In this document: positions 1,411 through 54,725 of the stretch, one piece after another
Numbering within the stretch: the first letter of the stretch is position 1
Layout of the letters: the number at the start of each line of letters is the position of its first letter
Assembly (NCBI GenBank): GCA_947624545.1
Contig: CANQKV010000001.1
Coordinates: 1-54,725 of the forward strand
Reading direction: 5' to 3'
Length of the DNA: 54,725 nt
DNA from: an uncultured Alphaproteobacteria bacterium
GTDB lineage: Bacteria; Pseudomonadota; Alphaproteobacteria; CAAHEQ01; UBA3637
The notes under the pieces: model-generated
Told to the model about the DNA's origin: nothing
Databases searched by the model: none
Seen by the model: the letters and a program-made list of their open reading frames with translations, nothing else
Position numbers and translations under genes: made by a program

Positions 1411-2478
1411 TCATTTAAAAAACCCCATTAATTCTTCCAATTTTTGATCGGAAATGCTTAAAATTAAAATATCAATTTTATCATTTAACAATTCTTTTTC
1501 CCGTTCTTGCCAGCGAATGCCCCAATTAATGTATTCATTGAATCGATACATTCTGAAATGCGAAAATGTGGGCATTAAAAACGGAAGCATATAATAAGAA
1601 AAGCTGTCACCGATTATATAAACCCGATGCGGAGAGCCTTTTTTATATTCCGAAAAGCGAAACTGCACATCACGATGAATTTTTAAATTGGCTTTATCTT
1701 TGTAAACATAATGTCGATATTTTGTTTTGCCGTAATCAAGCCCGTTTAAATAAGTGCTTCCGTTGTCAATAAAATAAGGTTTTTCCGTAGTTTGATAAGG
1801 TACCCATATTTTTTTTGTCAGCTCAATATGATAATCATCGGGTGTGACGGCACGAATATCTTTAAAATCTTTTTGCATGGCTTTTATTAAAAGCTTATAA
1901 GCTTTAAATGCCCCGTCTTCCGACCAATGCGAATCGGTTTTGTAAATAAGAGGAAATTGACTGTGGGCTTGGGAAATAAGGTGTTTTTCAATCGGCACCA
2001 CGGTTACAATGTTTTGCACTGCCTGTTCAACCTGTTCCGTAACGGAGGGTTTGTTTTCTCTTAAAATATAATCGGGTATCCATTTGTGATAAACGCGCAA
2101 AGTTTCCGGCGGAATTATCAGATAAACTTTAATGTTATGTTCTTTGGCAAAATCGGCAATTTTTTGAACATTTTTTTGAAGCAGGTTAATTTGTTGAGGT
2201 GTAAATGAATAAGAATTTTGATAAACGGATAACGGTTTTATGTATCTATAATCTGAGGAAATATGGAAAACAAAGTTTTCTTTGCCGACAATGCGATCTT
2301 TGGTGCCTAAATCACGCCCCAAACCCGATTCGAAATAAAAATCAATTAATTTTGAACGATACGGCAAATGATCAGAGATGTATTTTTCAAGTTGTTCGCT
2401 TTGTGTCCAAAAATGAAAGGGAAAAGTTTCTAAATTGCGCCGTTCACGCACACTTTGCGTTTGTGTTGTGTCCAGCAT
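1411..2478 (-). CDS. AlgX/AlgJ/PatB-like O-acetyltransferase, copy 2; body of a frameshifted (phase-OFF) gene whose true start is at 2657
   Basis: This is a paralogue of 125-1339 with the same TDSHWS and GDSFSYY motifs. Upstream of the annotated Met, the same frame continues as FLLCLFILFPLCALLTLGL (the TM helix) up to the ATGT repeat. The conserved N-terminus MHRRTNENFTPFFKAEKNARQQR (2657-2589) enters the repeat in a different frame. Confidence 0.7.
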   Translation of the reverse strand: MLDTTQTQSVRERRNLETFPFHFWTQSEQLEKYISDHLPYRSKLIDFYFESGLGRDLGTKDRIVGKENFVFHISSDYRYIKPLSVYQNSYSFTPQQINLLQKNVQKIADFAKEHNIKVYLIIPPETLRVYHKWIPDYILRENKPSVTEQVEQAVQNIVTVVPIEKHLISQAHSQFPLIYKTDSHWSEDGAFKAYKLLIKAMQKDFKDIRAVTPDDYHIELTKKIWVPYQTTEKPYFIDNGSTYLNGLDYGKTKYRHYVYKDKANLKIHRDVQFRFSEYKKGSPHRVYIIGDSFSYYMLPFLMPTFSHFRMYRFNEYINWGIRWQEREKELLNDKIDILILSISDQKLEELMGFFK

Positions 2479-2692: not shown

Positions 2693-2898
2693 TAAAAAAA
2701 ATAAAAACCGAAAAAATAAAAAAAAAGCACCGCTTTCGCAGTGCTTTTTTATGCAAAGAAACTTATTTCTTTGTTCCACATCCGCAACCCGGCATAACGC
2801 TCCCCCTCCTTTCGCACATATTATCGTATCTCACAAACTCTATGTAAGAATTAAAATAACACTTGTCAAGACGATTTGAATTTGTTATATTAACGTCT

Positions 2899-3654
2899 AT
2901 GAAAAAATTATTTGCTTTTTTATGGTTTCTTTTTTTAACGGCATGTGCCACGCAAAATCCGTTGACGGATTTTCGATTTCAAACACAACCGGCACCGCCG
3001 TACATTTTGGCAAGCTGGTATCGCATTAATGCCCCCGGCGAGCCTGTTCGCATTTATATTGAGGGTGACGGCGCCGCTTTTAATGCCGACGGCACTCCTT
3101 CGGATAATCCTACGCCGCAAGACGCGTTTTGGCGTAACGTTGCCGCCGATGATCCGCATGCTAATACGGCTTATTTGGGGCGTCCCTGCCAATATATGCA
3201 GGCGGGAGCCTGTTCGCAGGTTGATTGGACAACCGGTCGGTTTTCGCCGCAAATTGTGCGCAGTATGAATAGTGCCGTAACGGCGCTGATGAAAAAAGCA
3301 CAAACCGATCAGGCTGTGTTAATCGGCTATTCGGGCGGTGCGCAAATTGCCGGATTGATTGCCGTTCATGATCCGCATGTGGTGAAAGTGATTACCGTTG
3401 CCGGTGTGTTGGATACCGATGCCTGGACGGCTTATCATCATGACACACCCTTAAAAGAATCGCTGAATTTAAAAGATTATCAAATTGAATTTTTAAAAAT
3501 ACCGCAAATTCATTACGTCGGCGAAAAAGATACCGTTGTTCCGCCTGCGCTCACAAAAGCTTTTGTGCAAGAGGCAGCACCGATGGTGATTGTTCGAAAA
3601 GCAACACATAATGACGGGTTTGAGTCTGTTTTGAACGAGTTATATCAACAATAG
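2899..3654 (+). CDS. Lipoprotein, alpha/beta-hydrolase fold
   Basis: MKKLFAFLWFLFLTAC carries a lipobox (LTAC). A GYSGG nucleophile elbow (GxSxG) and a C-terminal HND are present. The ORF track starts at 2863, but the ATG at 2899 gives a proper signal peptide. Confidence 0.6.
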   Translation: MKKLFAFLWFLFLTACATQNPLTDFRFQTQPAPPYILASWYRINAPGEPVRIYIEGDGAAFNADGTPSDNPTPQDAFWRNVAADDPHANTAYLGRPCQYMQAGACSQVDWTTGRFSPQIVRSMNSAVTALMKKAQTDQAVLIGYSGGAQIAGLIAVHDPHVVKVITVAGVLDTDAWTAYHHDTPLKESLNLKDYQIEFLKIPQIHYVGEKDTVVPPALTKAFVQEAAPMVIVRKATHNDGFESVLNELYQQ

Positions 3655-42402: not shown

Positions 42403-44463
42403 ATGTTGGGTGTTGTGCAAGGCGAAGACAAAAACAATATTGATTTGGGACCTTTAACCGAAGTTATTAAACGTGACGGCGCCAAACACGCGTTTGATGC
42501 CTCAAAAATTGCCATGGCAATCACGCGTGCCGGTGAAGCCACAAACGAATTCGGTACGGATGAAGCTTGGTTGCTGACGCGTCAGGTTATTAAGGTTTTA
42601 AAACATAAGTTTGCTTTCGGGCATATTCCCGCCATTGAACAAATTCAAGATGTTGTCGAACAAGTATTAATTTCATCGAACTATTATAAAACGGCGCGCT
42701 CTTATATTGTTTATCGCGAACAACGGGATAAAATTCGGAAAGACAAGCATGCCGCCATTGATGCCATTTCCTCCATTAACGAATATTTGGATCGCTCCGA
42801 TTGGCGCGTGAATGCTAACGCCAATCAGGGATATTCGCTCGGCGGTTTAATTTTAAATGTGTCGGGAAAAGTGGTTGCCAACTATTGGTTAAATCACGTT
42901 TACACACCGGAAATCGGAGAGGCGCACCGCAACGGCGATTATCATATTCATGATTTGGATATGTTATCGGGTTATTGTGCCGGTTGGTCGTTACGGGTGT
43001 TGTTGACGGAAGGTTTTAACGGCGTGCCGAACAAAGTGGAATCGAATCCGCCGCGTCATTTGGTTTCGGCGTTCAGTCAAATGATTAACTTTTTGGGAAC
43101 ACTGCAAAACGAATGGGCGGGTGCGCAAGCTTTTTCATCGGCAGATACATATTTAGCCCCGTTTGTGCGTATTGAAAAATTATCGTATGAAGATGTGAAG
43201 CAAGCCATGCAGTCTTTCATCTTTAACTTAAATGTGCCGTCGCGTTGGGGAACGCAAACACCGTTTACGAACTTAACGTTTGATTGGACGTGTCCGGATG
43301 ATTTGAAAGATCGTCATCCGATGATCGGCGGTGTGGAACAAGATTTTGTTTACGGCGATTTACAAAAAGAAATGGATATGATTAATCGGGCGTTTTTGGA
43401 AGTGATGGGTGCCGGCGATGCCAAAGGTCGACCGTTCACGTTTCCGATTCCCACTTACAATATTACCGACGAATTTCCGTGGGATTCGCCCAATACCGAA
43501 TATTTGTTTGAAATGACGGCAAAATACGGATTGCCTTACTTTTCAAACTATTTAAATTCCGATATGAAACCGAGTGATATTCGCTCTATGTGCTGTCGTT
43601 TACGGTTGGATTTAACCGAACTGAAAAAACGCGGCGGCGGCTTGTTCGGTTCGGCAGAACAAACGGGATCCATCGGCGTTGTTACCATTAACTGCGCGCG
43701 GTTGGGCTATTTGTTTAAAGGACAGAAAGAAGCTTTATACAAGCGCTTGGACGAGTTGTTGGATTTAGCCAAAACATCTTTGGAAATTAAGAGAAAAACC
43801 ATTTCCATGCATATGGACAGAGGCTTATATCCTTATACACGGCGGTATTTGGGAACATTCCGTAACCACTTTTCAACCATCGGCGTGAACGGTATTAATG
43901 AAATGATTCGCAATTTTACGAACGATATGGAAAACATTACGACCGAATACGGACGCGCATTTGCCAAGGAGCTTTTAACGCATATTCGTGAAAAAATGTT
44001 GGCATTTCAGGCGGAAACGGGCAATATGTATAATTTGGAAGCCACGCCTGCGGAAGGAACGACATATCGTTTTGCCAAAGAAGATCAAAAACGGTACAGC
44101 GGCATTATTCAAGCCGGCACCAAAGACGCTCCTTATTATACCAATTCTTCTCAATTACCGGCAGGCTTTACGGATGATCCGTTCAAGGCGCTGGATTATC
44201 AGGACGATTTACAAACGCAATATACCGGCGGAACAGTCTTACACTTGTATATGAGTGAACGTATTTCATCGGCATCTGCTTGTAAAGCATTAATTCGACG
44301 GGTTTTGGAAAATTATCGGTTGCCGTATGTTTCGGTAACGCCGGTTTATTCCATTTGCCCGAAACACGGCTATATTGCCGGCGAGCACAAATACTGCCCC
44401 ATGTGCGATCAAGAGCTTATCGAAAGAAAGCGCAAAGAAATGGAAGCGGCAGGAAACTTTTAA
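42403..44463 (+). CDS. nrdD: Anaerobic ribonucleoside-triphosphate reductase (class III) large polypeptide, lacking the glycyl-radical C-terminal segment
   Basis: Has an N-terminal ATP-cone (VIKRDGAKHAFDASKIAMAI), the core NrdD barrel (SMCCRLRLD) and a C-terminal Zn ribbon (CPKHG...CPMC). The ORF stops 21 aa after the last Cys, before any RVxGY motif. Confidence 0.9.
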   Translation: MLGVVQGEDKNNIDLGPLTEVIKRDGAKHAFDASKIAMAITRAGEATNEFGTDEAWLLTRQVIKVLKHKFAFGHIPAIEQIQDVVEQVLISSNYYKTARSYIVYREQRDKIRKDKHAAIDAISSINEYLDRSDWRVNANANQGYSLGGLILNVSGKVVANYWLNHVYTPEIGEAHRNGDYHIHDLDMLSGYCAGWSLRVLLTEGFNGVPNKVESNPPRHLVSAFSQMINFLGTLQNEWAGAQAFSSADTYLAPFVRIEKLSYEDVKQAMQSFIFNLNVPSRWGTQTPFTNLTFDWTCPDDLKDRHPMIGGVEQDFVYGDLQKEMDMINRAFLEVMGAGDAKGRPFTFPIPTYNITDEFPWDSPNTEYLFEMTAKYGLPYFSNYLNSDMKPSDIRSMCCRLRLDLTELKKRGGGLFGSAEQTGSIGVVTINCARLGYLFKGQKEALYKRLDELLDLAKTSLEIKRKTISMHMDRGLYPYTRRYLGTFRNHFSTIGVNGINEMIRNFTNDMENITTEYGRAFAKELLTHIREKMLAFQAETGNMYNLEATPAEGTTYRFAKEDQKRYSGIIQAGTKDAPYYTNSSQLPAGFTDDPFKALDYQDDLQTQYTGGTVLHLYMSERISSASACKALIRRVLENYRLPYVSVTPVYSICPKHGYIAGEHKYCPMCDQELIERKRKEMEAAGNF

Positions 44464-44478
44464 AACAGGGAGGATTAT

Positions 44479-44628
44479 ATGAGTCAAAAACCTCAACAAG
44501 TCAAGAAAAAAATCTCAACACAAAAGCCATTTGTCTGGGTATCAAATTCCCAAAAAAAAGAAAAGGGGCTTCGGCAGTTGTCGTTTGATGATTACTTGAA
44601 AAAAACAAAGCAACACACGAAAGGATAA
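44479..44628 (+). CDS. Hypothetical 49-aa lysine-rich protein (micro-ORF between the nrdD pieces)
   Basis: The ATG at 44479 follows a GGGAGGA ribosome-binding site. The product is MSQKPQQVKKKISTQKPFVWVSNSQKKEKGLRQLSFDDYLKKTKQHTKG. It is in the same reading frame as nrdD, separated only by TAA plus 5 codons. It is below the ORF-track length cutoff. Confidence 0.35.
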   Translation: MSQKPQQVKKKISTQKPFVWVSNSQKKEKGLRQLSFDDYLKKTKQHTKG

Positions 44629-44630
44629 TC

Positions 44631-44819
44631 ATGACAGACACGGAACTTTTGAAAAAACACGAACAAGAACGGCAACCGGTAGAATGCTGGACGCGGGTTA
44701 TGGGTTATTTCCGCCCGTACAGCCAATTTAACAAAGGTAAAAAATCGGAATTCAACGAACGGAAATGGTTTGTTGAGGAAAATTGCGGGTGTGCCTGTAA
44801 GAACGAAAAAGCCGCTTAA
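44631..44819 (+). CDS. Stand-alone glycyl-radical domain of class III ribonucleotide reductase (NrdD C-terminal segment as a separate 62-aa protein)
   Basis: TRVMGYFRPYSQFNKGKKSEFNERKW matches the NrdD glycyl-radical signature (RVxGY ... NxGKxxExxxR). It has its own AAAGGA ribosome-binding site and ATG, and its frame differs from nrdD. Confidence 0.75.
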   Translation: MTDTELLKKHEQERQPVECWTRVMGYFRPYSQFNKGKKSEFNERKWFVEENCGCACKNEKAA

Positions 44820-44831
44820 TCGGAGTGTATT

Positions 44832-45521
44832 ATGTTAACGCCGGCCGGATTGGTTCCCTTCACGACTATTGATTTTCCGAACCGTTTGGCCGCCGTTATT
44901 TTTTTTCAGGGGTGTCCGCTCAGATGCCCCTTTTGTCATAATCCGAATTTGCAACCGATTCAAACCGAAAGTACGGCACAATGGAGCGAAATCGTTTCAT
45001 TTTTAAAAACCCGTCAAAAACAGTTGGACGGTGTTGTTTTCAGCGGCGGCGAGCCGTTAATGCAGGCAGATTTGAAAAAAGGCATTCAAACCGTTAAAGA
45101 AATGGGTTTTCAAACAGCTCTTCATACCAGCGGTGTTTTCCCCGATAAGTTTGCCGATGTTTTACCGCTGATTGATTGGGTCGGATTGGATATTAAAGCA
45201 CCTTGGGCAAAATATTCTTTATTAACCGGACGACCCGACATCAGCGAATCGGTTCAAAAAAGCTTACGTCTGTTAATTCAATCACAAACGTCTTATGAAG
45301 TGCGAACGACATTGGATCCGCGATATTTAACCGTTGATGATGTTTATCAATCGGCGAAAGAATTGTTGGCTGAAAACGTACAAACTTATACGTTGCAAAA
45401 ATATCGCACGTTTGATGCGGATAAAAATCCGCCGCAACAAAGTCAAATCGATTCGTTTTTTAAAGATACGGACTTAATGACTTACTTACAAAATCATTTT
45501 TCGCATTTTACTTGTCGATAG
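44832..45521 (+). CDS. nrdG: Anaerobic ribonucleotide reductase activating protein (radical SAM)
   Basis: Contains the CPLRCPFCHN (CxxxCxxC) radical-SAM cluster motif and VVFSGGEPL, and lies adjacent to nrdD. Confidence 0.9.
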   Translation: MLTPAGLVPFTTIDFPNRLAAVIFFQGCPLRCPFCHNPNLQPIQTESTAQWSEIVSFLKTRQKQLDGVVFSGGEPLMQADLKKGIQTVKEMGFQTALHTSGVFPDKFADVLPLIDWVGLDIKAPWAKYSLLTGRPDISESVQKSLRLLIQSQTSYEVRTTLDPRYLTVDDVYQSAKELLAENVQTYTLQKYRTFDADKNPPQQSQIDSFFKDTDLMTYLQNHFSHFTCR

Positions 45522-49338: not shown

Positions 49339-49412
49339 GCGAGTGTAGCTCAATGGCAGAGCGGAAGCTTCCCAAGCTTAAGACGAGGGTTCGATTCCCT
49401 TCACTCGCTCCA
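49339..49412 (+). tRNA. tRNA-Gly (anticodon CCC)
   Basis: A 74-nt hand-folded cloverleaf. The acceptor stem is GCGAGTG/CACTCGC, the anticodon loop is TTCCCAA and the T-arm is GAGGGTTCGATTCCCTT. The discriminator is U and the CCA end is encoded. It closely resembles E. coli glyU. Confidence 0.92.
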
Positions 49413-49494
49413 TTTTTTTAACAAGCCGATTCGTTGGTATGTTCAATGCAAGAAATATCTGTTTTTTTCAAGATATATTAAAGCGGAGTTAAAC

Positions 49495-50205
49495 ATGATT
49501 TACGGTTACATTCGTGTTTCGTCCGAAAAGCAAACGGTGGAAAATCAAAAGTTTGAGATTCAAAAGTTTGCTTTACGGAACAGTATTCACATAGACAAGT
49601 GGGTTGAAGAAACCATTTCCACGCGCAAGCCGTTAAAAAAGCGCAAATTAAGTCGATTATTAGATATTTTAACGGAAAATGATATTTTAATTACATCTGA
49701 AATTTCGCGTTTAGGGCGTTCTTTACTGGAAGTTATGGGTATTTTGCAGAATTGTTTATTAAAGGGCTGTCAAATCTGGACAATAAAAGAAAATTACCGA
49801 TTGGGTGCCGATTTACAATCCAAAGTTATGGCGTTTGCGTTTGGATTATCGGCGGAAATTGAGCGACAATTAATATCCGATCGCACGCGGGCATCGCTTG
49901 AAAACTTAAAGGCGAAAGGAATTAAGTTAGGGCGTCCGATCGGGGCGAACGGACGGGCATTAAAGTTGCCGAACAGTTTGCAAAAAATATTTTGTTTAAT
50001 TAAAAACGGCTGTTCGCAATCGGAAGTTTCGCGCATTATGGGTGTTCATAAAACAACCATTTGTCGGCTGATTCAAAAGCATTATCCCGAGCTTTCAACG
50101 GAAGAGCCTGAAAAGTCAATTTATAAGACGGAAAACTACTCTTTGGCTTCTGATTTTGCGGTAAATACGCCTGATCTTTCGCATTCGTCGAATGAAAATC
50201 AATGA
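49495..50205 (+). CDS. Small serine recombinase (resolvase/invertase family)
   Basis: Contains MIYGYIRVSSEKQ (catalytic Ser motif), SRLGRS and a GRP hinge. A C-terminal HTH is present (CSQSEVSRIMGVHKTTICRLIQK). The gene starts 83 nt downstream of tRNA-Gly. Confidence 0.88.
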   Translation: MIYGYIRVSSEKQTVENQKFEIQKFALRNSIHIDKWVEETISTRKPLKKRKLSRLLDILTENDILITSEISRLGRSLLEVMGILQNCLLKGCQIWTIKENYRLGADLQSKVMAFAFGLSAEIERQLISDRTRASLENLKAKGIKLGRPIGANGRALKLPNSLQKIFCLIKNGCSQSEVSRIMGVHKTTICRLIQKHYPELSTEEPEKSIYKTENYSLASDFAVNTPDLSHSSNENQ

Positions 50206-51377
50206 GGAACTTCTTGCTGATTTTCATTAATAATGCCCATTTTCAGCAAGCGATACATATATTGTGTTCCCAAAACAAACAAGATTTTTTCGGGGGGAAT
50301 CATAAAGTAAAGAGAGGAAGAGAAACCGCCGACCAAGTCAGGTCCATAACCGGTTAAGAAAAGAGCCTCAACGGGAATATTCGATTCAAGAGCAATCCAT
50401 CCGGGGAAAGCTTTTTTAATTTTTATGCATTCCTTTTGGGCGTCGAGAGACGGATGACATTTGAGCAACACGCGATACGGTAATTTCTTAACGAGTTGAA
50501 AAGAATCGATTTCATACTTTACTTTTGGTTCTTTATCAAAGAAATATCCTGCTGTCAGCACCAAAGTTTTTCGATTACTTTTCTTGTTAAACAACTGGGG
50601 GTCAATTTGGAAAAAGCGGGTTAATAATTTTTTCTCATAAGGGAGAAGACGATCGGTTTCGCGTTTTAAATCAAGCGTTTTAATATTTTCGGCGCCGATC
50701 CATTCTACAAAATTTTTATAATATTTATCTTTTTTAATTTCATCGCCTTTACACAAATGATAAGTTGCCGGCACGAATTTCCCGACTGAGGCTTTCCAAA
50801 AGAGAGCAGAGGGTGTTAATGAGAAATTCCAAGCGGATTTATGCTCCAAATTCACCATTTTGAACGGTTGGAATTTTGTCCATGCGGGGTTTTCAACGCC
50901 GTAAACATTGCAAGCGCCGTCTTCATACATATGGATATGTTCAATTTTATCGCCCAGTTCTTTTATGAGCGGATACACAAAATAAAACACCTGATTGATA
51001 TTTGTATAAACTTCCAATTTTGCGGTGGGATATTTTTGAACAATTTTTTTCAACTCTTCAATACAATCCGGTGCATTGTATAACCAAAAGCCTTCTATCG
51101 AGCTTAAAGCGAGTTCGATTGTATTTTCTCCCAAATCGAGGATATTTGAGCGTTTCGGGAAGCGATGAAAGAAAAACACCTTTAATTCACTTTGATTGGG
51201 GAGAGATTTAATCAATTCCACGCTTTCCCAGAGAGCGGGGGAAGTGGCATAAACTTCCAGAAAGACTTTAATTTTTTTAATTTGGGGTTTAGGTTGATAA
51301 TAACAGCTGATAACGGCGCAAGTACATGCAAGAGCCATAAAGAACCATTTTAAAAAAGTTCTAACGGAATGTTTCAC
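50199..51377 (-). CDS. GT80-family (Pasteurella PM0188/PmST1-like) sialyltransferase
   Basis: Collinear matches to PmST1, recalled from memory. These are HMYEDGACNVY (D/E-D/E-G motif), LLKCHPS (HP motif), IPVEALFLTGYGPDLVGGFSSSLYFMIPPEKI (SS motif block) and LKMGIINE at the C-terminus. A hydrophobic N-terminal anchor is present. Confidence 0.7.
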   Translation of the reverse strand: MKHSVRTFLKWFFMALACTCAVISCYYQPKPQIKKIKVFLEVYATSPALWESVELIKSLPNQSELKVFFFHRFPKRSNILDLGENTIELALSSIEGFWLYNAPDCIEELKKIVQKYPTAKLEVYTNINQVFYFVYPLIKELGDKIEHIHMYEDGACNVYGVENPAWTKFQPFKMVNLEHKSAWNFSLTPSALFWKASVGKFVPATYHLCKGDEIKKDKYYKNFVEWIGAENIKTLDLKRETDRLLPYEKKLLTRFFQIDPQLFNKKSNRKTLVLTAGYFFDKEPKVKYEIDSFQLVKKLPYRVLLKCHPSLDAQKECIKIKKAFPGWIALESNIPVEALFLTGYGPDLVGGFSSSLYFMIPPEKILFVLGTQYMYRLLKMGIINENQQEVPH

Positions 51378-51846
51378 GCGAGTAAGCTCCGTAAAAATCT
51401 TCTTTATTCAACCAACCGGTATATTCTTTATCATTAAACAAAAAGGAAAGACGACAAGAATCGACTTCACAGGCTTCCAATTTTCCGAGGGCGCCTTTTT
51501 GGACGAAAGCGACGGGGGGTGCCGATGTTTCGATGTCCCGACGCAAGGCGGTATCTTCTGTCACGACGGCAAAGCGTCCTGAGCTGAGCATTCGGCGATG
51601 AACCCAACCGACTGTTCCGTCAACTTCGCGGATTTGACGCCATAATTCGTATTCATCAATCACTTCAACGGGATAATTTTTCATTCGATAGACGAATTTA
51701 ATGGGATAGCGATTGCCCGGACCTGTTCTTAAATTCACATCGGATCTGCGAAACGAAACGAATCGGGGAATAGCCAATTCCTGCGCGCAAACGGCGGAAG
51801 CGAGGGAGAGGGCGCCCACAAACAAGAGAACGGATTTAACTTTCAT
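51361..51846 (-). CDS. Secreted bacterial SH3-like (DUF1058) domain protein
   Basis: Has a signal peptide, MKVKSVLLFVGALSLASAVCAQE. RFVSFRRSDVNLRTGPGNRYPIKFVYRMKNYPVEVIDEYELWRQIREVDGTVGWVH is an SH3b pattern. Confidence 0.7.
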   Translation of the reverse strand: MKVKSVLLFVGALSLASAVCAQELAIPRFVSFRRSDVNLRTGPGNRYPIKFVYRMKNYPVEVIDEYELWRQIREVDGTVGWVHRRMLSSGRFAVVTEDTALRRDIETSAPPVAFVQKGALGKLEACEVDSCRLSFLFNDKEYTGWLNKEDFYGAYSRETFR

Positions 51847-52372
51847 TTGAAGCTTTAACCCTTTCACGAACACTTTTAACCGTTCGTTTTTTATTGGGGG
51901 TTGATTGTTTTACGGCAGGCTGTTCGGCATCATCGATTGAATCGAGGATCATTTCTTTATGCTCTTCGCGTAATTGACCGCTGACTTCATTCCAACAGAT
52001 TTGAAGAACGGGTGAAATGAGTAATTGAGCAATTTCTTCGCCGCGCCGCAAAATTAACTGACGACGAGAGGCATTTTGCAACAAAACAAAGAGTGCTTCT
52101 CTGTCGGCGGGATTGATAATTTGAGGCGAATCGAGGACGATTAAGCCTTTTTCGACGGCGACGGCGGGTAAAGAAACAACTTGACCGCACAGACCGTCCG
52201 GCACGCCGAAACCGAAGCCGACAGGCACCAAAGCGCGCTCACTCGGATCTAATTTCAGCACACTGGGAATAGCAGCGCGCAAAATCAAGCCGACGTGATG
52301 ACGTGACGTATAAGACGGCAAAGGAAAATCAACGCCGTCGGGCGTACGAATGATGTGGATTCTCGGAATCAT
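51836..52372 (-). CDS. dUTPase-fold protein with degenerate catalytic motifs (probable pseudoenzyme)
   Basis: Aligns collinearly with trimeric Dut (FPLPSYTS..., LVPVGFG, GLIVL, GEEIAQL). The motif positions read HVGLIL, SLPAVA and QIINPADREA, and the glycine-rich motif V is absent. Confidence 0.6.
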   Translation of the reverse strand: MIPRIHIIRTPDGVDFPLPSYTSRHHVGLILRAAIPSVLKLDPSERALVPVGFGFGVPDGLCGQVVSLPAVAVEKGLIVLDSPQIINPADREALFVLLQNASRRQLILRRGEEIAQLLISPVLQICWNEVSGQLREEHKEMILDSIDDAEQPAVKQSTPNKKRTVKSVRERVKASNES

Positions 52373-52396
52373 TGAATGCCTTTCACAATTTTGTTC

Positions 52397-52425
52397 ATTG
52401 TGGCGTATTTGTTATTTTTTGTCAA
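52397..52425 (-). promoter_or_regulatory. Putative sigma70-type promoter of the dut-like/SH3/sialyltransferase operon
   Basis: The minus strand reads TTGACA (52425-52420), a 17-nt spacer, then CACAAT (52402-52397), about 25 nt upstream of the ATG at 52372. A GAAAGG ribosome-binding site lies in between. Confidence 0.45.
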
Positions 52426-52520
52426 GAAGTTTTTTACAAAATATAAGGAACAAAGGCGATATTCCGATTGTTTTTAAATTGTTTCAATAAAAGAGGCATT
52501 TTTTTACGGAATCAAAAAGA

Positions 52521-52653
52521 GGGAAGCCTGACAGCGGGTAAGGAAAACGGCGATTGTTCATGAAACAGGGTTTTTTGAGGGGGAGGGTAAGGAAAGAGAG
52601 GATAAAAATAGAAAACATTGACAAAAATGGGTAAAAAAACGAGTTGAATTGAG
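52521..52653. repeat. 133-bp conserved element, copy A (head of the polypurine module)
   Basis: GGGAAGCCTGACAGCGGGTAAGGAAAACGGCGATTGTT...GAGTTGAATTGAG is a direct repeat of 53111-53243, with only a few substitutions. Confidence 0.9.
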
Positions 52654-52702
52654 CAAATTTCTGTTTCTCTTTTCAGTTCATGACAAGATAAAAAAACGAA
52701 TT

Positions 52703-52930
52703 GAGAGAGAGGAAAAAGCAGAAAGAAAGAGAGAGAGAAAAAAGAAAAGGAGGAAAAAAGAGGGGGAGGAAAAGAGGGGAGAGGGGAGAGGGGAGAGGGG
52801 AGAGGAGAGAGGAGAGAGAAAAGAGACGAAAGAGGGGAAAGAAAGAGAAGAAAAAAGAGAGGGGGAAAAATTGGGGTGGGAGATAGGAGGGGAAGAGAGA
52901 CGAAAAAGAGGGAGGGGATAAAAAAAGGAA
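52703..52930. repeat. Polypurine (G+A) / polypyrimidine tract A
   Basis: By direct count, 228 nt on the + strand contain only 8 pyrimidines. The tract contains (GAGGGGA)n-type micro-repeats. Confidence 0.95.
52776..52800 (+). other. Canonical G-quadruplex-forming motif GGGG-AGA-GGGG-AGA-GGGG-AGA-GGGG
   Basis: Four G4 runs (52776-79, 52783-86, 52790-93, 52797-800) are separated by 3-nt AGA loops. An extra GGGGG run lies at 52762-52766. Confidence 0.8.
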
Positions 52931-53110
52931 CCCGCTCGGGAGAGCGAAGCCTTTTACTAACTTTAAGAAAAGGGAAAATCCGCTTGTTGTTAAAGAAAAG
53001 AGCAGATTTTTGAGCGGGCTGGTAAGAAAAGAGAATGAGGATTATTTTTTATTCATAAAAGCGGAAAAATGTAGAAAGTGGAAAGTGCATAAGGGGTTAA
53101 CGGCATGCAA

Positions 53111-53243
53111 GGGAAGCCTGACAGTGGGCAAGGAAAACGGCGATTGTTAAAGAAACAGGGTTTTTTGAGCGGGAGGGTAAGGAAAGAGAGGATAAAAATA
53201 GAAAACATTGACAAAAAAAGATAAAAAAACGAGTTGAATTGAG
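53111..53243. repeat. 133-bp conserved element, copy B
   Basis: Direct repeat of 52521-52653, 590 bp downstream of copy A. Confidence 0.9.
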
Positions 53244-53347
53244 AGAGAGAAAAGAAAAGGACGAAAAGAGAGAGGAAAAAAGGGGTGGGAGATAGGAGGA
53301 AAGAGGGGAGGGAAAAGAAAGAGGAAAGGGAGGGGATAAAAAAGGAA
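53241..53347. repeat. Polypurine / polypyrimidine tract B
   Basis: 107 nt with 4 pyrimidines. It ends in the same GGGGTGGGAGATAGGAGG...GGGAGGGGATAAAAAAGGAA block as tract A. Confidence 0.95.
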
Positions 53348-53370
53348 CCCGCTCGGGAGGGAGCGGGTCC
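53335..53370 (-). terminator. Intrinsic terminator-like hairpin (minus-strand orientation)
   Basis: An 8-bp stem ACCCGCTC/GAGCGGGT with a 6-nt loop. The minus strand then reads TTCCTTTTTTAT, while the plus strand has no comparable T-run. Confidence 0.55.
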
Positions 53371-53481
53371 TTGGTATGTTTAATTTTAAGAAAGGGGAGA
53401 ATCCGCTTATTTCAAGGGAGTTTTTACGGATTACCCCTTATTAAGAAAGCCCGCTCGGGAGAAAACGCGGACGTTTCTTAA

Positions 53482-53940
53482 TTATTCTTCGTCGGGAGAG
53501 TGCAAGTCAAACTTATACAGCTTGACAGTACTGTTATCGACGAAATAAATGCAAACGCCTCGAATATCCGATTCCTTTTCACAGGAGAGTGTGAAAGGAC
53601 AAGAAATCGAGTGCCCGTATTGAGAAATATATTCATCGGATTCGGGCGCACGTTCGCCGGCAACGCAAGGGCTGATTGTACTGATTTGACATTTGCCCAA
53701 GAGTTGTTTTGCTGCAACAAGGTTTTCGGCAACTTGTTTAATGTGAACGTTATCGACAAACAAAGAGGGAACAAGAGCTAAATCCCATGTGGAAACGAAA
53801 TTGGCGAATTGAGTTTTCATTGCCGTCATGGCAATTTGTTCGCGGTGTGTAATTTTCGATTGAGAATATTGTTTTATTCCCAAAGCGACGGCGCCTGCGA
53901 GCAGGCAAAGAAGCAAAACAAACAAAATTTTTTTTATCAT
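53482..53940 (-). CDS. Hypothetical exported or membrane-anchored protein
   Basis: The N-terminal hydrophobic segment MIKKILFVLLLCLLAGAVALG is a signal peptide or anchor. I recognise no family. Confidence 0.5.
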   Translation of the reverse strand: MIKKILFVLLLCLLAGAVALGIKQYSQSKITHREQIAMTAMKTQFANFVSTWDLALVPSLFVDNVHIKQVAENLVAAKQLLGKCQISTISPCVAGERAPESDEYISQYGHSISCPFTLSCEKESDIRGVCIYFVDNSTVKLYKFDLHSPDEE

Positions 53941-54003
53941 AAATATCTCCTTAAAGCAAGCGGATTCCGTCCCGTAAGGAACGGCAACGGAATCCTTTCT
54001 TTA

Positions 54004-54725
54004 TTAAATTGTCTCAACACAACATGTTTCCTCTTGCGGTGGCGGCGGCGGTGTAACGGAGGGTGTTACAGGCGGCGTTACAGGTGTTGGCGGTGGTGTA
54101 CAATCGCAACAGCAGTTTTTTATATCCGCTTCATAAACACAACCAGGGTGGCTTTCACAACATGTTTTTGCCTTATCGTCAGGACAACTATTGATTTCAT
54201 TGTTGTAGACCTTGTCGCAATCGCAAACGGGCGTCGTTGGCGGCGTTGTTGTGGGCGTCGGCGTTGGCGTCGGTGGCGGCGTTGTTGTGGTCGGCGTCGT
54301 TACGGGCGTTGGCGTCGGTGGCGGCGTTGTTGTCGACGGCGTCGTATCAGGAGGCGTAACAATAGGTGTTTGACCACCACACGGATGTCCATTACCACCG
54401 CAACAGATTGAACCGTCCCAAGTACCGCCATACTGCTCACAACACCGTTTGGCAGCATCATTACTGCAATGATGTTGTCCGCCGTTATGATACACAGCTG
54501 AACAATCACATGTTGTTGTCGGCGGTGTCGTCGTTGTCGGTGGCGGCGTTGTTGTCGACGGTGGCGTCGTTTCGGTCGGCGTCGGTGTCGGTGTTGGCGT
54601 CGTATCAGTCGGCGGCGGCGTTGTTGTGGTCGGCGTCGTTATGGGCGTCGGCGTTGGCGTCGGCGTCGTATCAGTCGGCGGCGGCGTCGTTGTGGTCGGC
54701 GTCGTTGTGGGCGTCGGTGTTGGCG
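54004..54725 (-). CDS. Thr/Pro-rich, Cys-module repeat protein (mucin-like), C-terminal part; the ORF is open to the window end
   Basis: The frame stays open upstream of the ORF-track start at 54495 (a GTG): ...TPPTTTCDCSAVYHNGGQHHC... Two Cys-rich modules (CDC..VY.N...C....K.CCE...) are separated by long (T/P)n linkers. Tandem 66-bp repeats lie at 54601-54725. Confidence 0.7.
   Translation of the reverse strand, partial: PTPTPTTTPTTTTPPPTDTTPTPTPTPITTPTTTTPPPTDTTPTPTPTPTETTPPSTTTPPPTTTTPPTTTCDCSAVYHNGGQHHCSNDAAKRCCEQYGGTWDGSICCGGNGHPCGGQTPIVTPPDTTPSTTTPPPTPTPVTTPTTTTPPPTPTPTPTTTPPTTPVCDCDKVYNNEINSCPDDKAKTCCESHPGCVYEADIKNCCCDCTPPPTPVTPPVTPSVTPPPPPQEETCCVETI

Follow-up and report, generated by a model that had tools for sequence, protein, structure and literature searches.

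The gap at positions 52373-53481 (1109 bp) of a 54,725-nt stretch of DNA from an uncultured alphaproteobacterium (contig CANQKV010000001.1; the whole stretch is hereafter called the window) sits between two minus-strand genes and holds two tandem modules, each made of an A/G-rich direct repeat, the head, followed on the plus strand by an almost pure purine tract. The whole array is within the 3′ region of a minus-strand gene for a 152-aa protein, the upstream neighbour of the gap, and is followed by an operon encoding a dUTPase-like protein, an SH3 protein and a GT80-like (PM0188 / polysialyltransferase-like) glycosyltransferase. We propose, giving it an even chance of being right, that the array is a duplicated and slippage-expanded 3′ region of the 152-aa gene, and that it has no sequence-specific function of its own.

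Head A (52520-52653) and head B (53110-53243), both of 134 nt, are 94% identical and lie 590 bp apart in the repeat search, with 8 mismatches over the 133-nt coordinates of a preliminary description of this DNA, which had already recognized two near-identical tandem copies. The third, partial copy reported there is also real and longer than first thought: it covers the middle of the head, at 52986-53034, and aligns with 53143-53189 over 48 columns with a score of 50 against a shuffle maximum of 30. A 49-nt insert (52654-52702), the end of which repeats the 3′ end of the head, is found only after A-type heads. The repeat search recovered as well the block common to both tract ends and the TTTAAGAAA...AATCCGCTT block, and the 12-mer CCCGCTCGGGAG is present three times in the window, as previously noticed, for 0.04 occurrences expected.

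Tract A (52703-52930) comprises 228 nt with 8 pyrimidines (96.5% purine on the plus strand) and tract B (53241-53347) 107 nt with 4 pyrimidines (96% purine), lengths and counts that agree exactly with those given before; on the minus strand both are G-poor C/U tracts. Nowhere else in the 54.7-kb window does the purine or pyrimidine content reach 85% over 100 nt, and the longest pure purine run reaches 107 nt (52720-52826). Apart from one masked N run, no tract of at least 90% purine or pyrimidine over 80 nt was found in 80 related alphaproteobacterial dnaA loci (~1.28 Mb). Tract A includes a heptamer array, (AGAGGGG)x6.6 at 52773-52818 with 97% matches, which belongs to the window allele only, the remainder of the tract being cryptically simple, composed of G and A only with many overlapping periods.

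The comparison with sister species indicates how recent this organization could be. A search with the dUTPase-like protein returned no relative between 100% and 79% identity. Orthologues of the 152-aa gene (151 and 159 aa) stand directly upstream of the dUTPase-like gene in the sister species, with 192 bp between the 151-aa gene and the dUTPase-like gene in the species at 79% (L097-L100) and a corresponding gap of 134 bp in the species at 76% (L103-L105). These gaps contain, in L097 and L103, a stem-loop and/or an intrinsic terminator and then the same promoter, and only positions 52373-52440 of the window's gap match them (94% to L097, 80% to L103). In two more distant relatives, L101 and L102, another gene is found upstream of the dUTPase-like gene. 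On this comparison the array is lineage-specific and not conserved, and a terminator region of about 150 bp would have grown to 0.55-1.1 kb within one species, intermediate alleles still segregating.

Such alleles were indeed found. Among contigs with identical flanking proteins (short-read assemblies with flanks 98-100% identical), four structural alleles with one or two modules were distinguished. The window allele has two modules in its 1109-bp gap. In L001 (965-bp gap), the tract of module A is rearranged and module B is reduced to a truncated head without its tract, the deletion junction falling at GGATAAAAA, a 9-nt microhomology present in the head and at the tract end. L005 (550-bp gap) has one module, consisting of head A, the 49-nt insert, an A-type tract of ~75 nt and an intact terminator. 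In L002 the 5′ part of the head is A-type and the 3′ part B-type, the insert is lacking and a B-type tract comes next; this contig stops inside the tract, and several further contigs break exactly at tracts. A chimeric head of this kind would be the product expected from an unequal crossover between the heads, and the three altered alleles together support the earlier suggestion that the direct repeats are recombination substrates. The tract itself had been thought expandable, which is borne out by lengths from ~75 to 228 nt between strains; tracts of different alleles share blocks, for example GGGTGGGAGATAGGAGG and AAAAGAGACGAAAGAGGGGAAAGAAAGAGAAGAAAAAAGAGAG, in differing order and number. 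Because L001, L002 and L005, which come from other samples, carry tracts between the same flanks in independent assemblies, the tracts are not an assembly artefact. An SH3 protein search for extra alleles returned only L001.

The divergence between the window and L001 separates two kinds of DNA within the gap. The promoter spacer (52373-52519) is identical at 147/147 positions and the gene-proximal segment 53348-53481 at 132/134, for 98.5% identity in the SH3 and dUTPase-like coding sequences (CDS) and 98.0% in the 152-aa CDS. In comparison, head A is 91.8% identical, the inter-module spacer (52931-53109) 86%, and tract A 85% with 33 additional gap columns. Divergence at four-fold degenerate sites is 4.0% across eight genes and 10.6% within the dUTPase-like gene next to the gap, so that the heads, tracts and inter-module spacer (8-15% divergence) change as fast as the local neutral rate or faster. 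Much less change is seen in the promoter spacer and in the gene-proximal hairpins described below, and both appear to be constrained. The head, first presented as a conserved element, is a duplicated one instead: it diverges by 8% between strains, at about the neutral rate, is absent from the nearest species and is unstructured. A structured head RNA was rejected, the heads folding no better than shuffled sequences on either strand (z = -0.07, +0.60, -1.92 and +0.06).

Taken together, these observations are in agreement with the following history. The ancestral order, as in the sister species, would be the 152-aa gene, a stem-loop, an intrinsic terminator and then directly the operon promoter. 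Three changes would be restricted to the present species: (i) the hairpin loops turned CUCCC-rich, that is, anti-Shine-Dalgarno-like (anti-SD-like), and an extra hairpin, stem-loop 1 (SL1), appeared; (ii) a C/U tract and the 134-nt A/G-rich head accumulated behind the terminator; and (iii) the block formed by stem-loop 2 (SL2), terminator, tract and head was duplicated in tandem with a 590-bp period. The order along the minus strand would then be the 152-aa gene, SL1, SL2, terminator B, C/U tract B, head B and a spacer, followed by SL2′, terminator A, C/U tract A, the 49-nt insert, head A, the ancestral spacer and the promoter. Three processes would remodel the locus: replication slippage, as in the heptamer array, unequal crossover in which heads or terminator blocks recombine, and deletion at microhomologies. 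An earlier duplication round is hinted at by the overlap of the third partial head with the start of SL2′.

Several points weigh against this proposal. Each of the four alleles retains one or more heads and a tract of ~75 nt or longer, and their tracts stay ~96% pure, so that the retained heads and pure tracts could reflect selection and not slippage alone. The 49-nt insert, also present in L003 and L005 and absent from L002, is identical at 49/49 positions between the window and L001, where ~4 changes would be expected at 8% divergence, while divergence in the DNA to either side of it is 8-15%. Nor does the proposal account for where the head comes from, only its middle 48 nt having a detectable paralogue; a derivation of its 5′ part from the terminator flank was not significant, 178/1000 and 20/1000 shuffles reaching the score. 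Moreover, the alleles were taken from short-read metagenome contigs, several of which break in tracts, and some of them, especially L002, could be incomplete or chimeric; the transcribed strand and the 3′ ends are those predicted from the DNA sequence.

The best-organized part of the region lies next to the 152-aa gene. Read on the minus strand, 53481-53336 is predicted to fold into three hairpins with -52.9 kcal/mol (z = -5.7, 0/200 shuffles as stable). SL1 (53441-53481, minus strand) is a 41-nt hairpin with a 12-nt loop, GUUUUCUCCCGA, containing CUCCC; SL2 (53392-53439, minus strand) is a 48-nt hairpin with a 19-nt loop also containing CUCCC (...AACUCCCUUG...); and terminator B (53336-53372, minus strand) is a GC-rich hairpin of 31 nt with the loop CCUCCC, then UUCCUUUUUUAU. 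The hairpin of terminator B (53345-53370) has 10-12 pairs and -19.3 kcal/mol and is a canonical intrinsic terminator. Its counterpart, terminator A, located at 52931-52948 within a decayed SL2′ plus terminator element (52919-53020, minus strand; 14% diverged between strains), is weaker and shorter (-10.1 kcal/mol) and has a U-run as well. Both score as minus-strand intrinsic terminators with T-runs after them; the preliminary description had proposed this for the hairpin of copy B, said to be intact, and had called that of copy A eroded. The triple 12-mer corresponds on the minus strand to the loop and 3′ arm (CUCCCGAGCGGG) of SL1, terminator B and terminator A. An attenuator or antiterminator working by alternative pairing of the repeated CUCCCGAGCGGG in SL1 and the terminator was considered and rejected, the terminator persisting when the first 12-20 nt, in the 5′ arm of SL1, are blocked. 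Only 8 hairpins with CUCCC or CCUCC loops are present in the window on both strands, and 4 of them are on the minus strand at 52931-53472.

Conservation of pairing argues for the structure. The four substitutions found among strains are all structure-neutral, two being in a bulge or loop and the two others, in SL1 of L005, keeping the pairing (A-U to G-U and U-G to C-G). A covariance model built in this analysis from the three-hairpin unit (R1) detects the module A paralogue (minus strand, 53020-52919) with 30.5 bits (E 2e-4) and the 3′ untranslated region (3′ UTR) of the sister species at L097 2356-2492 (25.9 bits, E 2e-3 over 1.38 Mb). In the alignment fitted to R1 17/39 pairs change on both sides with 99.4% of cells paired, figures that are inflated by the fitting of the alignment to the model, which leans it towards the structure; the contrast is nevertheless large with controls in which the partner was slid by 1-3 columns, where at most 4 pairs changed on both sides. 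SL2 is kept in the module A paralogue and in L097, with 8/13 pairs changed on both sides. Because R1 finds the decayed paralogue and the L097 3′ UTR with these both-side changes, SL2 and the terminator would represent the ancestral 3′ structure. The loops of L097 and L103 contain no CUCCC, and the CUCCC loops appear to be new in this species.

In the model that we favor, the gene-proximal unit (53481-53336) is an intact, constrained, terminator-ended RNA or 3′ UTR of ~140 nt, and the distal unit is decaying. The proximal RNA may be transcribed separately, with ~135 nt, or may be no more than the 3′ UTR of the 152-aa gene. A sigma-70-like match over the stop codon of this gene, TTGACT-18-AATAAT at 53481-53510 on the minus strand, agrees with the consensus at 10/12 positions and is a possible separate start for the three-hairpin RNA; it is a consensus match only, in a region where the number of promoter matches equals the shuffle expectation. 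The terminator would end minus-strand transcription coming from the 152-aa gene, and the loops of the three hairpins may play the part that the anti-SD loops play in the cuckoo, ar14 and CcsR RNAs.

This last comparison deserves attention. Cuckoo RNAs consist of 2-4 adjacent hairpins, each of 24-50 nt, with CCUCCUCCC in their loops (PMC4615179), and occur in Alphaproteobacteria as tandem copies derived from 3′ UTRs (PMC8034643, PMC4615179). With cuckoo, ar14 (RF02344), CcsR1-4 and NfeR1 the unit described here shares an alphaproteobacterial host, three adjacent hairpins of 31-48 nt (SL1 41, SL2 48, terminator 31) of which the last is a terminator, a C/U-rich anti-SD-like motif in every loop, and a location in the 3′ UTR of a protein gene with the unit duplicated in tandem. 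It differs from them in that its loops contain only CUCCC (SL1, SL2) or CCUCCC/CUCCCUCCC (terminator) and not the full CCUCCUCCC, of which CUCCCUCCC represents 7/9 positions. The sister-species orthologue of the hairpins is without such loops, and a long homopyrimidine tail behind the terminator is not known from any member of the family. The upstream gene encodes a 152-aa protein without Pfam family and not a DUF1127 protein, a context (CIN1) that is typical and not obligatory. At gathering thresholds, Rfam gave only two tRNAs elsewhere in the window, and permissive scans gave sub-threshold matches only, those with the best coverage being to the anti-SD small RNA (sRNA) families ar14, RsaE and suhB/mmgR; ar14 aligned at all 123 model positions with 18.4 bits, against a gathering threshold of 58.8 (E 0.13 in a 221-nt search). 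The three-hairpin unit resembles the cuckoo, ar14 and CcsR RNAs, but its Rfam score, its loop motif and the lack of a DUF1127 neighbour place it outside the family.

The preliminary description had envisaged a CCUCC-rich, anti-SD-like RNA read from the minus strand. This idea gains support for the hairpin loops next to the tracts, which contain CUCCC, and not for the tracts themselves. In its extended form, the C/U tracts would be functional parts of a cuckoo-like anti-SD RNA locus, transcribed by read-through or from a separate start, whose CUCCC/CCUCC arrays pair with Shine-Dalgarno sequences or titrate an RNA-binding protein, tract length tuning the dose. The adjoining hairpins with CUCCC in all their loops and the weak Rfam matches to ar14, RsaE and suhB/mmgR speak for it, as do the tandem 3′-UTR-derived copies of the cuckoo RNAs; the gap contains 18 GGGAG and 10 GGAGG motifs on its plus strand, equivalent to CUCCC and CCUCC on the minus strand, and the tracts of L002 and L005 contain the exact CCUCCUCCC on the minus strand. 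However, these motif counts are near chance for a sequence made of G and A only, one exact 9-mer is also about what chance would give, and the full 9-mer is absent from the window's gap. In addition, an intrinsic terminator stands upstream of each tract on the minus strand, a strong one with U6 in the case of terminator B, the interval from terminator to tract contains no promoter match, and the tracts lack sequence conservation among strains. We therefore regard this extended form as unlikely.

A related possibility is that the locus is a newborn, fast-evolving relative of the cuckoo RNAs, with its CUCCC loops, homopyrimidine tail and duplication, in which the tails are transcribed and act as length-tunable anti-SD regulators or sponges. 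To this we attach a rather low probability. If it were true, the tails would have to be transcribed by read-through or from a promoter outside the sigma-70 consensus, and changes of length between strains would alter translation globally or the expression of the adjacent sialyltransferase-like operon.

Coming back to the expanded 3′ region, which we prefer, a role of the tracts by composition can be considered. Of the 228 nt of tract A read on the minus strand, 104 are C (~46%) and at most 8 are purines, and the tract is fully unpaired in the modelled read-through RNA. Tract A has the composition of Rho-dependent (rut) regions, in which ~80 nt or more of C-rich, G-poor and unstructured RNA follow a transcription unit, and would offer to Rho an ideal loading site on the read-through RNA; together, terminator and Rho loading would insulate the downstream operon promoter. 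As in rut regions, the unstructured, C-rich stretch of more than 80 nt lies directly after an intrinsic terminator and before the next promoter; the tract is far longer and purer than known rut sites, and it is hypervariable. No rho gene was found among the scanned open reading frames (ORFs) of the window.

Transcription of the opposite strand was also considered. The preliminary description had named a GGA/GGAGG-rich sponge RNA among the possible roles; on this reading the plus strand would be transcribed from the head into a purine-rich RNA able to sponge CsrA, Hfq or 30S ribosomal subunits. GGA is present 19 times in tract A and 11 times in tract B, each head carries a TTGACA hexamer, and a weak TTGTCA-17-TATAAG can be recognized by eye upstream of head A. 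Against this, no plus-strand promoter passes the scan, and the candidate promoter in the head was rejected, since nothing 16-18 nt after the TTGACA makes an acceptable -10 hexamer. Neither a plus-strand terminator nor an Rfam match was found, the sequence is poorly conserved, and the heads do not fold significantly when read on their purine strand. Known CsrA sponges display GGA in hairpin loops. A promoter-to-terminator transcript with GGA in its loops, of the CsrB/RsmZ type, is not found here. A plus-strand sponge RNA, for which neither a sigma-70-like promoter nor a terminator could be found, is consequently abandoned as highly improbable.

The position of the array directly upstream of the operon promoter brings to mind a contingency locus, in which slippage or recombination would alter the expression of the downstream operon through terminator number, promoter distance or DNA topology. 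Module number and tract length do vary between strains, the GT80-like protein of the operon is strain-variable (84% aa identity, though the DnaA genes differ at 5/1416 nt), and the contig has a second perfect microsatellite, (ATGT)13, in a divergent intergenic region. Nevertheless, the operon promoter (TTGACA-17-CACAAT at 52425-52397, minus strand) belongs to the ancestral region 52373-52440, outside the array, and is invariant with its spacer (52373-52519). The variable DNA begins ~95 bp, and tract A ~278 bp, upstream of the -35 hexamer (52425); it is neither in a promoter spacer nor in a reading frame, and unit number would, unlike in contingency loci, shift neither. Furthermore, the alleles differ by sequence turnover and not by simple unit number, and the same operon exists in the sister species without any array. 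A contingency function is thus doubtful. The array can also be compared with loci of simple-sequence and heptamer repeats, such as the G-rich GGGNATC-type heptamer repeats in Xanthomonas and Nostoc (PMC4692102): it is intergenic between two same-strand genes, its G-rich heptamer array is able to form a G-quadruplex (G4), and its length differs between strains, consistent with slippage. In contrast to these loci, the tract is mostly cryptically simple G/A and not a clean unit repeat, the array occurs once and is not dispersed over the sequence seen, and it is embedded in a 590-bp higher-order duplication.

Purine-pyrimidine (R-Y) tracts may also adopt non-B structures, and a triplex (H-DNA) or G4 able to block polymerases, absorb supercoils or stimulate mutagenesis and recombination has to be weighed. 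A perfect homopurine mirror repeat of 31 nt is present in the window allele together with, at 52776-52800 within tract A, the only canonical G4 motif of the 54.7 kb, of the form (G3+N1-7)3G3+, and L001 has a different mirror repeat of 26 nt and a G4 motif. The surroundings of the tracts are unusually diverged and rearranged, and an association of triplex-forming motifs with genome instability has been described in bacteria (PMC4666352). On the other side, L002 and L005 have no G4 motif and mirror repeats of 11-12 nt at most, so that these motifs are not a conserved property of the locus, and plain repeat recombination and slippage explain the instability equally well. The likeness with H-DNA or intrastrand triplex motifs is limited to the long R-Y tract, the mirror symmetry in two alleles and the rearrangement of the locus between close strains; the described bacterial triplex motifs are short, conserved and multi-copy (PMC4666352), unlike the single, non-conserved tract of ~75-228 nt seen here. 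The triplex or G4 element of the preliminary description, specific to some alleles and absent from 2/4, was not retained, and a non-B function of the locus appears very improbable.

The last alternative concerns the resolvase-family gene at 49495-50205, a serine recombinase 2.3 kb away, for which the heads would be res-like sites, the enzyme excising or amplifying the 590-bp unit. The heads are direct repeats of ~130 bp, the size of a res site, and single-module alleles exist. But L097 has the orthologous recombinase in the same place and no heads, the heads contain no inverted-repeat (dyad) subsites, no further head copy is present in the window, and the junctions vary (inside heads, in the terminator block, at the 9-nt microhomology), which is the signature of homology-driven and not of site-specific events. 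We consider the link between the recombinase and the heads, made in the preliminary description, to be extremely improbable. The arrangement of the neighbouring genes is of separate interest. In the more distant relatives L101 and L102, the dUTPase-like and SH3 genes come after dnaA-hsp20-DUF1150 on the same strand, and in the window (49339-50205, 50199-52372) and its closest relative L097 this block is inverted relative to dnaA. Like the window, L097 and L103 have the GT80-like gene adjoining the block, with a serine recombinase gene at its side; in the window the recombinase gene comes after a tRNA gene. This arrangement suggests a putative old inversion or insertion next to the recombinase.

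Other origins of the array were examined and rejected. Mobile or foreign DNA was excluded by the lack of a blastn match of the region among plasmids or phages, of a real match of the head pattern in JGI metagenome contigs or IMG/VR (8 matches in the metagenome-contig collection being chance matches of 22-30 nt), and of further head copies in the window or in 1.4 Mb of fetched loci. The flanking 12-mer TTTTTACGGA(A/T)T was dismissed as a target-site duplication, about one such match being expected by chance on a rough estimate. A decayed or cryptic CDS was rejected too: neither the low-complexity ORFs of the gap nor a 165-aa ORF called on L001 matched a Pfam family, the region is absent from the sister species, and such ORFs stay open because DNA made of G and A only has no stop codons and DNA made of C and T only has no start codons. 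Finally, no TTATCCACA-like DnaA box (at most 1 mismatch) lies in 52373-53481, and the 19 boxes of the whole window are inside the shuffle range, which excluded a replication origin (oriC) or a cluster of DnaA boxes in the gap.

The contig is chromosomal, as it encodes DnaA, Hsp20, NusA, IF-2, DnaK, HtpG and an anaerobic ribonucleotide reductase. The closest DnaA among species-representative genomes is only 54% identical and comes from uncultured Alphaproteobacteria, including metagenome-assembled genomes labelled Micavibrio and Holosporaceae; the host of the array is an uncultured gut-type alphaproteobacterium. The genes for NrdD, the anaerobic ribonucleotide reductase, and for its radical-SAM activase (42403-45521) would indicate an anaerobic lifestyle. 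The 152-aa gene (53482-53940, minus strand) is an ORF whose product has a signal-peptide-like N-terminus and matched no Pfam family. Between it and the next gene upstream, a long GC-rich hairpin (GGATTCCGTTGCCGTTCCTTACGGGACGGAATCC) is found at 53945-54003 on the minus strand, which by eye has the string AAGCGGATTC in common with the 3′ arm of SL2, in the same orientation on the minus strand. Beyond this hairpin, 54004-54725 (minus strand) encodes Thr/Pro-rich, Cys-rich proteins without Pfam family, running off the contig end and encoded by long tandem DNA repeats (periods 45 and 66; 91-95% matches); this segment differs between strains, and contigs L006 and L007 stop inside it (window ~54313 and 54290).

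On the other side of the gap, the GT80-like gene (50199-51377, minus strand, compared with L001 2896-4074) differs at 109/1179 nt between the two strains, giving the 84% protein identity. Its changes are restricted to residues ~88-300, and divergence is 0.1-0.6% in the nearby genes for DnaA, Hsp20, the resolvase and the SH3 protein; it looks like a putative mosaic or diversifying surface-glycan gene. Far from the array, the perfect (ATGT)13 microsatellite (2535-2587) and a long A-rich run (2694-2726) lie between an ORF at 1411-2478 (minus strand) and an ORF at 2863-3654 (plus strand), in a divergent intergenic region. This microsatellite may be a contingency locus, or a sign that the genome tolerates repeat expansion.

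The array involves known kinds of system, that is, growth by simple-sequence change and tandem duplication, and cuckoo-like hairpin RNAs. Taken at face value, it is a clear natural example of the growth of non-coding DNA in a bacterial genome by duplication, slippage and unequal crossover. To our knowledge, homopurine tracts of ~100-230 nt are very rare in bacteria; since such tracts are rare and none was found in the 1.28 Mb of related loci, the locus offers a useful case in which to study the instability of R-Y tracts, the loading of Rho and the effects of R-loops or H-DNA in vivo. Should the tracts be inactive, they would be a curiosity of one uncultured lineage, and if they are transcribed and active, a new, length-variable form of anti-SD regulator. 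The feature of real interest may be the newly evolved three-hairpin RNA with anti-SD-like loops predicted next to the 152-aa gene: a 3′-UTR hairpin array just acquiring such loops would bear on the origin of cuckoo-type sRNAs.

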